This document shows positions 18,201 to 19,012 of a stretch of DNA of 45,057 bases, in pieces (within the stretch, counting starts at the first letter, position 1; each line of letters opens with the position of its first letter). This DNA comes from Escherichia phage Eeyore, in sequence record PP925821.1, one strand, 5' to 3'. The position numbers and the translations under genes are program-made. Under the pieces are notes generated by a model, which saw nothing but the letters and a program-made list of their open reading frames with translations, was not told where the DNA came from and did not search any database.

Positions 18201-18893
18201 ATGAATTTACAAGAACTGGAATATACGCGGATTGAACTGCGCCGCGCGCTGGTGGATTTATCAGGATCGACAAAAGGACAGCTGCAGGCGTTCAGTGAGC
18301 ATCCACCAGCAGATAAGAATAAATACCCTCGGCACCATCCTGAAATCGTCATGGAGGGTGGGGAAGGTTGTGGATCAAAGGTGGTAAAAACTCTGGCCAC
18401 TCCGCTTTATGTTCTTGAGACAAGGAGCCGTCGCCGACCTTTACCGCCTATTAAGGATACGGAGTTCGCTTGTTCAGCATGGCGTCGATCGGTCAATGGT
18501 TTGGGGGAGCATTTGCAGGCATGGGTGCGGTACTGCTATGGGCATGACCTTGCTTTCCGGTACCAGAGGTTAATGTGCCAGCACGTATGGGAAGAGTTTC
18601 AGCGTCAGCATAGCGGCAAAAAAATCCAGGACCGTGTCACTAAAAAACTGGTAGGGCTTGTCTGGCTGGCGGCGCAAGAAGTTGCTGCCTCGCGTAATAA
18701 CGATACCTATCAGGAGTATGCTGGTGCAGCTCTGGCGCGCATGGTCAGCGTTGAGCGTTCCACCTGGCTCAGAGTGTATTCAGGCCACTGGGCGGCTTTC
18801 AAAGCGTCGTTTGCTGAAATGGACAGCCAGGCACTAAGCGAAATTTTGTCACGGTACGAAGAGTACCAAGAACTGAAAGTGGCGGAAATGTGA
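18201..18893 (+). CDS. Putative late-gene antiterminator (Q-like), by position
   Basis: 230 aa from ATG 18201; last gene of the rightward early operon, followed by an intergenic region with a strong terminator before the lysis genes. No zinc-finger signature seen. Confidence 0.35.
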   Translation: MNLQELEYTRIELRRALVDLSGSTKGQLQAFSEHPPADKNKYPRHHPEIVMEGGEGCGSKVVKTLATPLYVLETRSRRRPLPPIKDTEFACSAWRRSVNGLGEHLQAWVRYCYGHDLAFRYQRLMCQHVWEEFQRQHSGKKIQDRVTKKLVGLVWLAAQEVAASRNNDTYQEYAGAALARMVSVERSTWLRVYSGHWAAFKASFAEMDSQALSEILSRYEEYQELKVAEM

Positions 18894-18986
18894 GGTAACT
18901 TTCACTAACTCCCTCAAATGGGCTTGCAAAATGCAACAAAATGAGTCATATTTGAACCTAATTTGATATGTTGCTAAAAGTATATC

Positions 18987-19012
18987 AGCCCGCCAGTGAG
19001 CGGGTTTTTTCT
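18987..19012 (+). terminator. Intrinsic terminator (tR'-like) downstream of the Q-like gene
   Basis: Stem CCCGC/GCGGG, loop CAGTGA, then TTTTTTCTT; candidate -35 TTGCAA lies at ~18927. Confidence 0.65.

Follow-up and report, generated by a model that had tools for sequence, protein, structure and literature searches.

Late-gene antiterminators of the Q type fall into three families, Q21 (PF06530), Q-lambda (PF03589) and Q82 (PF06323) (PMC9388147). Phage 82 Q is known to antiterminate, to be stimulated by NusA and to contact the beta-flap tip (PMC4914094, PMC12360218). In the lambda and 82 promoters the Q-binding element (QBE) lies between the -35 and -10 elements, and 82 Q is presumed to be dimeric when bound (PMC4914094). 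The late promoter of phage 82, PR', has been described as carrying an extended -10-like pause inducer followed by GCC at +15-17, with a pause at +25/26 and a terminal U (PMC5001585). Solved structures are cited for Q21 and Q-lambda alone in a 2022 paper and in a review of 2025; the former (PMC9388147) ranks the Q82 mechanism among the priorities for research and leaves open whether this family uses a "nozzle". Here we analyse the segment from 18201 to 19012 of Escherichia phage Eeyore (PP925821.1; the whole stretch of 45,057 nucleotides is referred to as the window). An initial annotation had placed a Q-like gene here by position, followed by a late promoter and a terminator, and allowed that the protein might belong to a different antiterminator family or that the assignment might be wrong. 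Our analysis indicates that the region very probably is a late-gene switch of the Q82 type, arranged as in phage 82, which serves a lambdoid prophage or did so until recently.

The Q82-family gene and the adjoining promoter

The product of the open reading frame (ORF) at 18201-18893, close in length to phage 82 Q (230 and 229 residues), matches Pfam PF06323 with 138.4 bits (E 3.8e-40; curated cut-off 25 bits); the match spans residues 4-216 of the protein and positions 1-207 of the 220 in the profile. It also matches phrog_304, 'anti-termination protein Q-like', with E 2.8e-71, and BLASTP aligns it with phage 82 Q over 215 residues at 34% identity and 52% positives (E 2e-40). That alignment opens at Met1, which supports the ATG at 18201, with GGAG upstream at 18186-89, over a TTG at 18180. 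When phage records were searched by tblastn with the window protein, 69 were matched, including the phage 82 Q gene itself (X92588), and among the matches listed most were annotated as antiterminator Q. The gene is intact and keeps every residue that is invariant in the Q82 family. At E <= 0.01 only PF06323 was reported by Pfam, with no match to the Q-lambda (PF03589) or Q21 (PF06530) families, and NCBIfam returned no matches for Q, for the DUF968 protein encoded upstream or for the inserted gene downstream.

Judged by its sequence the protein is a clear Q82-family member. The positional guess was thus sound, and of the two reservations attached to it the first turned out to be correct, the different family being Q82, while the second can be set aside. 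The statement that the protein has no lambda Q-like zinc finger also holds: its four cysteines (C56, C91, C112 and C126) are scattered, with none in a CxxC pair; in the Q-lambda family, cysteines 118, 121, 144 and 147 are invariant. Close copies of the gene (83-97% DNA identity), found in 14 of 5,426 complete E. coli genomes, bear the RefSeq name 'bacteriophage antitermination protein Q'; near-identical genes are already correctly named in public annotation, and the switch is ordinary, textbook late-gene biology.

The record for phage 82 stops at the Q stop codon, and its promoter was therefore read from two proxies: PhiR47_2, with 98.3% identity to 82 in the Q gene, and a more distant 82-type phage, L005, with 77% identity to 82 in the Q protein. 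A text search of the literature for the 82 PR' sequence string returned nothing relevant. The late promoter of PhiR47_2 reads TTGCAA-(17 nt)-TATATT-TTATGT-AAATCTGATATTTTGCCAATGTTGTAC. When its first A is taken as +1, TG falls at +6/+7, TATTTT at +9..+14, GCC at +15..+17 and U at +25, in agreement with the published description of 82 PR' (PMC5001585). The window promoter, TTGCAA-(17 nt)-CATATT-TGAACC-TAATTTGATATGTTGCTAAAAGTATA, aligns with it without a gap (Table 1). The -35 hexamer that the initial annotation had proposed near 18927 is present at 18924-18929, identical in sequence and register to that of the phage 82 proxy. The annotation had overlooked two elements, a sigma70-dependent pause element (18964-18975) and, within the spacer, a probable QBE. 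The pause element consists of an extended -10-like TGaTATGTT at +6..+14 and a discriminator-like GCT at +15..+17; from the shared register we infer the start site and a pause near +25. A single copy of the composite pattern TTGnAA-N17-nAnnWT-N11-TGnTAnnnT is present in the 45-kb window (18924-18972), and 100 shuffles gave none.

The intrinsic terminator at 18987..19012, also part of the original proposal, is present: a stem AGCCCGC/GCGGGTT (18987-19006) of seven pairs, five of them G-C, closes a 6-nt loop, CAGTGA, and is followed by TTTTCT. The hairpin has a folding energy of -11.2 kcal/mol and stands at a fixed distance in relatives. Since it occupies +29..+48, the terminated RNA would be ~52 nt long. 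A 54-nt RNA beginning at 18959 reaches -15.6 kcal/mol, a stability that no shuffle out of 200 equalled (z = -2.9). The predicted fold contains a second hairpin, in which TGATATGTT of the pause element pairs with AGTATATCA just 5' of the terminator (18964-18987). We considered this as a functional RNA hairpin and rejected it, as the pairing is not conserved in relatives. No Rfam family matched anywhere in the window at gathering thresholds.

Conservation of the promoter region and its co-variation with Q

The arrangement was followed through 46 loci from bacterial genomes and several phage loci. Of the 53 loci scanned (the window is one of them), 43 have the composite motif in fixed register, either beside the 3' end of Q or overlapping with it; the layout of Q, PR' and tR' originally suggested is borne out, in the 82-type register. 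An alignment of the 27 compact-type loci is invariant for TTG.AA in the -35 element, for A at position 2 and T at position 6 of the -10 element, and for TG.TA and the following G of the pause element. Relatives with ~70% DNA identity in the Q gene have 82-92% in the promoter and pause segment; that non-coding DNA is more conserved than the adjacent gene argues for selection acting on it.

A hairpin core at +28..+50 followed by U's is present in all 27 compact-type loci. Through compensatory changes, at least four versions of the stem keep their pairing (CCCGC/GCGGG, CCUCG/CGGGG, CCUGCC/GGUGGG and GCCCAC/GUGGGC), and the loops vary freely. Each hairpin was folded individually, and a column-wise count of pairs was dropped, because in the MAFFT alignment two stem types were offset by one column. 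In all close relatives found, sequence similarity breaks off at 19008-19010, on the last T of the terminator; Q, PR' and tR' thus behave as a single exchangeable unit.

Between the Q stop codon and the -35 element there is a further conserved non-coding block, GTAACTTTCACTAAC, largely kept in Flotzy, phiNP and LLS, although the Q protein of phiNP is merely 68% identical. It is also found in loci L008-L019 and L024; in other clades the Q ORF extends across this position. We also note a 5-3-5 inverted repeat, TTGCAaaaTGCAA (18924-18936), which extends over the -35 hexamer into the beginning of the predicted QBE. It is limited to promoters of the AATGCAAC spacer class and might reflect dimer binding, or chance.

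Within the promoter only the spacer varies from one Q clade to another, and its co-variation with the protein was surveyed across ~50 loci. Distance between spacers correlates best with distance over protein residues 168-207 (rho 0.81, against 0.49 for a transcribed-region control with the same segment). AlphaFold2 models of the full-length protein (predicted local distance difference test score, pLDDT, 75.8; predicted template modelling score, pTM, 0.71) and of residues 84-230 (pLDDT 79.9, pTM 0.75) both have one helix at residues 170-181 and another that starts at 186, and the latter would begin with the predicted recognition helix of a C-terminal helix-turn-helix. The sequence of this helix sorts with the start of the spacer. 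The window clade, with 55-100% protein identity, combines RSTWLRVY with AATGCAAC; a second group has RSTWCExY and AACCGAAC, and a third RDTWYQTY and AACCyGACA. In 82-like groups xxxWSKxY/F goes with spacers of the form AAGT..., and phage 82 itself has KNWSETF and AACTGGATT.

The co-varying pair consists of the residue two past the tryptophan, R191 in the window, and the third base of the spacer, at -27. Counted as distinct pairs, arginine goes with T in nine of nine cases, lysine with G in seven of eight and glutamate or glutamine with C in 14 of 15; the lone lysine-G exception is a 1-nt register shift. The switch can also be seen on similar backgrounds: L030, L057 and L058 combine a window-like protein with a WSK helix and an AAGT spacer, and inside the 82 group glutamate occurs with AACT and lysine with AAGT. 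Among extra loci chosen to test the rule, L057, L058, L061 and L062 fit it, and L059 does so only after a 1-nt register shift; L060 is a further class, and L055 and L056 differ downstream, as described below. There is thus good comparative support for the view that the C-terminal helix-turn-helix reads the upstream part of the spacer, and the helix formed by residues 186-193 may be what contacts the DNA. The rule predicts that changing the spacer from AATGCAAC to AAGTCAAC, or introducing R191K, would each abolish function alone and restore it when combined.

Proposed switch and alternative explanations

By analogy with phage 82, the elements would act as follows. Host sigma70 RNA polymerase would initiate, probably constitutively, at PR' near 18959; sigma70, still attached, would re-bind the extended -10-like sequence at +6..+14, and the complex would pause at about +25. 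Without Q, polymerase would resume, transcribe the hairpin and release the ~52-nt RNA. Once made from the early-right operon, Q would bind the spacer (AATGCAAC...) through its C-terminal helix-turn-helix and transfer from there to the paused polymerase, probably with the help of the beta-flap tip contact and NusA that serve phage 82 Q. Travelling with polymerase, it would render the complex resistant to terminators, allowing it to read through tR' and three more terminators and reach the inserted gene, the N6 methyltransferase, holin, endolysin, Rz and structural genes. Both the antitermination activity of the window Q and its dependence on NusA are expected from this analogy.

Several observations weigh against this account. 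Identity to the characterised Q82 protein is no more than the 34% given above, and the basic motif ETRSRRRPxPP (residues 73-83), near-invariant in the large clade to which the window protein belongs, is missing in phage 82 Q and in the proteins closest to it, so that the details of polymerase contact may differ. The core promoter matches only eight of 12 consensus positions, for which reason it was not listed by a generic promoter scan. Start and pause sites are placed by analogy, with PhiR47_2 standing in for the phage 82 promoter. Some of the co-variation between protein and spacer will stem from shared ancestry and from the promoter being physically linked to the gene's 3' end. Finally, three family members are arranged differently downstream: L044 (2172-2400) and L055 and L056 (1084-1300) have TTGACA, 17 nt and CTATAT ahead of G+C-rich hairpins and lack the TGnTA pause element. 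L044 does carry a canonical 82-type promoter motif ~875 nt farther on; in L055 and L056 a WSK helix occurs without the AAGT spacer.

Residues 35-85 (window 18303-18455), which hold the basic motif, are predicted with low confidence (pLDDT ~52). This segment is a candidate for a part of the protein that folds only on RNA polymerase or nucleic acid.

The weak match to consensus would also fit another explanation, in which the hairpin merely ends the early-right operon, TTGCAA and CATATT are there by chance, and the late genes use another promoter or regulator. Terminator-like hairpins are indeed common in this 6-kb stretch, where 11 were found against 5.9 expected. A chance origin is nevertheless hard to reconcile with a composite pattern that is unique in the window, where none is expected, that recurs in register in the loci counted above with more conservation than the coding sequence, and that matches both the 82-type promoters and the published account of 82 PR'. 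Nor did the generic scan find a better + strand promoter between 19010 and the lysis genes, and we regard this explanation as very improbable. The late genes might instead be activated by another product, for instance the DUF968/HNH protein (17118-18179), with the PF06323 gene inactive or otherwise employed. A homologue of that protein in the Citrobacter phage phiNP (L002, 1412-2479) is in fact annotated 'antitermination protein Q (ater Q_2)', but this label is probably a mis-annotation: the profile matches of the 17118-18179 protein are to DUF968 and HNH nucleases, with none to an antiterminator family, and in an 82-type phage a homologous YdfU-family protein is encoded further upstream, with RusA between it and Q. 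The PF06323 gene, for its part, is intact and retains all its invariant residues, and the co-variation of its helix with the adjacent promoter would be unexpected in a non-functional gene. We give this possibility almost no credence.

A further proposal would add to the Q82-type switch and not replace it, namely that the constitutive ~52-nt RNA from PR' to tR' serves as a small regulatory RNA in lysogens, as does StxS, a product of the late promoter in Shiga-toxin phages. Such by-products can become Hfq-binding small RNAs, and similar short RNAs come from phages 21, phi80, 82 and P22 (PMC7547250); the RNA predicted here has an AU-rich 5' part, a terminator hairpin and a U tail, in addition to its stable fold. 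The conserved transcribed bases, however, are those that the pause element needs (TGnTA...G), the upstream hairpin of the fold is not conserved, Rfam gave no match and the seed space is only ~25 nt. We consider a regulatory role of this kind unlikely.

With the Q82-type switch as the preferred account, a positional guess becomes a firm annotation, and the map of the prophage gains the late-operon start, the pause element and tR'. For the Q82 family it yields predictions as to which helix reads the QBE, which base each variant prefers and where natural swaps of specificity have occurred.

Table 1. Features of the Q-PR'-tR' region and the inserted segment (positions in the window)
Feature	Position	Strand	Basis or remark
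Q gene, Q82-family late-gene antiterminator, 230 aa	18201..18893	+	PF06323, phrog_304, similarity to phage 82 Q
Codons for residues 186-193 (RSTWLRVY), predicted DNA-recognition helix of the C-terminal helix-turn-helix	18756..18779	+	
Conserved non-coding block GTAACTTTCACTAAC	18896..18909	+	between Q stop codon and -35, ~-63 to -50
PR' -35 element TTGCAA	18924..18929	+	same hexamer and register in 82-type loci L005 and L063
Promoter spacer, 17 nt, AATGCAACAAAATGAGT, predicted QBE	18930..18946	+	placement from the literature; sorting by clade
PR' -10 element CATATT	18947..18952	+	aligns with TATATT of 82-type promoters
Probable transcription start (+1), uncertain by 1 nt	18959..18960	+	7-8 nt 3' of -10; 82-type register
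Sigma70-dependent pause element TGATATGTTGCT	18964..18975	+	in register with TGaTATTTT-GCC of 82-type promoters
Predicted pause, +25/+26, RNA 3' end U	18983..18984	+	register with phage 82
Intrinsic terminator tR'	18987..19012	+	terminator scan, fold energies, conservation
Inserted gene, 181 aa, phrog_4350 (unknown function)	19110-19655		directly after tR', in low-G+C segment 19013-20117
Small ORF, 53 aa	19904-20065		in low-G+C segment 19013-20117
Two-way terminator	20087-20117		end of inserted segment

Neighbouring genes and comparison with known Q systems

Q stands at the end of the early-right (nin) region, directly 5' of the late promoter and lysis genes. The gene order in the window (Ant, DUF968/HNH, Q, promoter and terminator, inserted gene, N6 methylase, holin, endolysin, Rz) is identical in Flotzy, phiNP and LLS. 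Beyond tR' there are + strand terminators at ~20087-20117, 20156-20172 and 21374-21393, all between PR' and the holin gene (21438), which implies that an antiterminator is needed to reach the lysis genes. The G+C content of ~18900-20100 is ~39%, against 50-58% on either side. Within this segment the gene at 19110-19655 has no Pfam, NCBIfam or PADLOC matches, and the small ORF at 19904-20065 has no PADLOC defence-system match; in Flotzy, phiNP and LLS the slot after tR' is occupied by other small genes. The gene looks like an accessory gene ('moron') inserted just past tR', and either Q control or a promoter of its own would follow from that position. By eye, TGGTATTCT at 19066-19074 resembles an extended -10 promoter element; from its location, 36 nt 5' of the gene, the gene may have a Q-independent promoter.

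The prophage also carries two DNA methyltransferases, a 663-residue enzyme of the cytosine-5 type in the early-right region (14423-16414) and a 350-residue N6/N4 type II-like enzyme (20317-21369), which is the first conserved late-operon gene in this phage group. A Q protein 98% identical to that of the window is encoded on a 44.6-kb contig labelled as a Geobacteraceae metagenome-assembled genome (L008, DAINBV010000046.1). The other closest loci (94-97% identity) are all from Enterobacterales, and the contig is probably a mis-binned enterobacterial phage.

Among described systems, StxS shares with the window a short constitutive late-promoter RNA that ends at tR', but StxS is a 74-nt processing product of a longer transcript, with Hfq binding and targets that have been demonstrated, whereas the ~52-nt window RNA is a prediction. 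Q21 is a functional analogue in the same genomic slot, published as having a different fold and acting without NusA.

Lambda Q has the gene position of the window Q and the role predicted for it, and the lambda scheme of a QBE between -35 and -10, a promoter-proximal pause dependent on sigma70, NusA-assisted loading and processive antitermination would apply to the window as well. A C-terminal helical domain that includes a helix-turn-helix is found in lambda Q and predicted for the window Q, which has no zinc-ribbon arm. The lambda pause lies at +16/17, compared with the predicted ~+25 here, and the terminated RNA of lambda (6S) is much longer. A demonstrable homology between the Q82 and Q-lambda families was considered and rejected, as hhalign gave a probability of 1.3%; the sole aligned stretch (Q82 family residues 182-201 with Q-lambda residues 169-188) takes in the presumed recognition helices and falls within the helix-turn-helix region of Q-lambda. 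Searches of PDB sequences with the single protein and with the family profile gave only chance-level matches and no hit to the Q21 entries; among the three Q families, Q82 alone yielded no solved structure. Foldseek found nothing in the PDB at E <= 0.001 with either the full-length or the C-terminal model, and in BFVD its only match was another Q82-family protein. For both models the best TM-score was to 7ubn_Q, Q-lambda in the engaged loading complex, which was not significant (full-length, TMq/TMt 0.39/0.43, probability 0.47, E 0.99; C-terminal domain, 0.56/0.42, probability 0.54, E 2.5). The resemblance to the Q-lambda structure is a lead, not a finding.

These models and the co-variation can be joined in one speculative proposal, which we hold to be rather doubtful. 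The C-terminal domain of Q82 would be a remote relative of the Q-lambda 'body' (a helical bundle, helix-turn-helix and long C-terminal helix), with the zinc-ribbon arm lost or never gained by Q82; residues 186-193 would read the spacer, with arginine, lysine or glutamate at position 191 pairing with T, G or C at -27, and the conserved but disordered ETRSRRRPxPP segment would fold onto polymerase. If so, two of the three supposedly unrelated Q families would share ancestry.

The closest likeness is to phage 82. The two switches have the same protein family, genomic position, -35 hexamer TTGCAA and 17-nt spacing, the same TG at +6/+7, -10-like hexamer at +9..+14, G/C triplet at +15..+17 and U at +25, and then an intrinsic terminator. 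This terminator is nearer in the window, its hairpin lying at +29..+48 as compared with ~+58..+82 in the phage 82 proxy and +47..+68 in L005; terminators in 82-type loci end at ~+70 to +85. The spacer (AATGCAACAAAATGAGT in the window, AACTGGATTAAAAATCA in phage 82) and the predicted recognition helix (RSTWLRVY and KNWSETF, respectively) also differ, and for this reason the two Q proteins are expected to differ in DNA specificity within what is otherwise the same promoter design.

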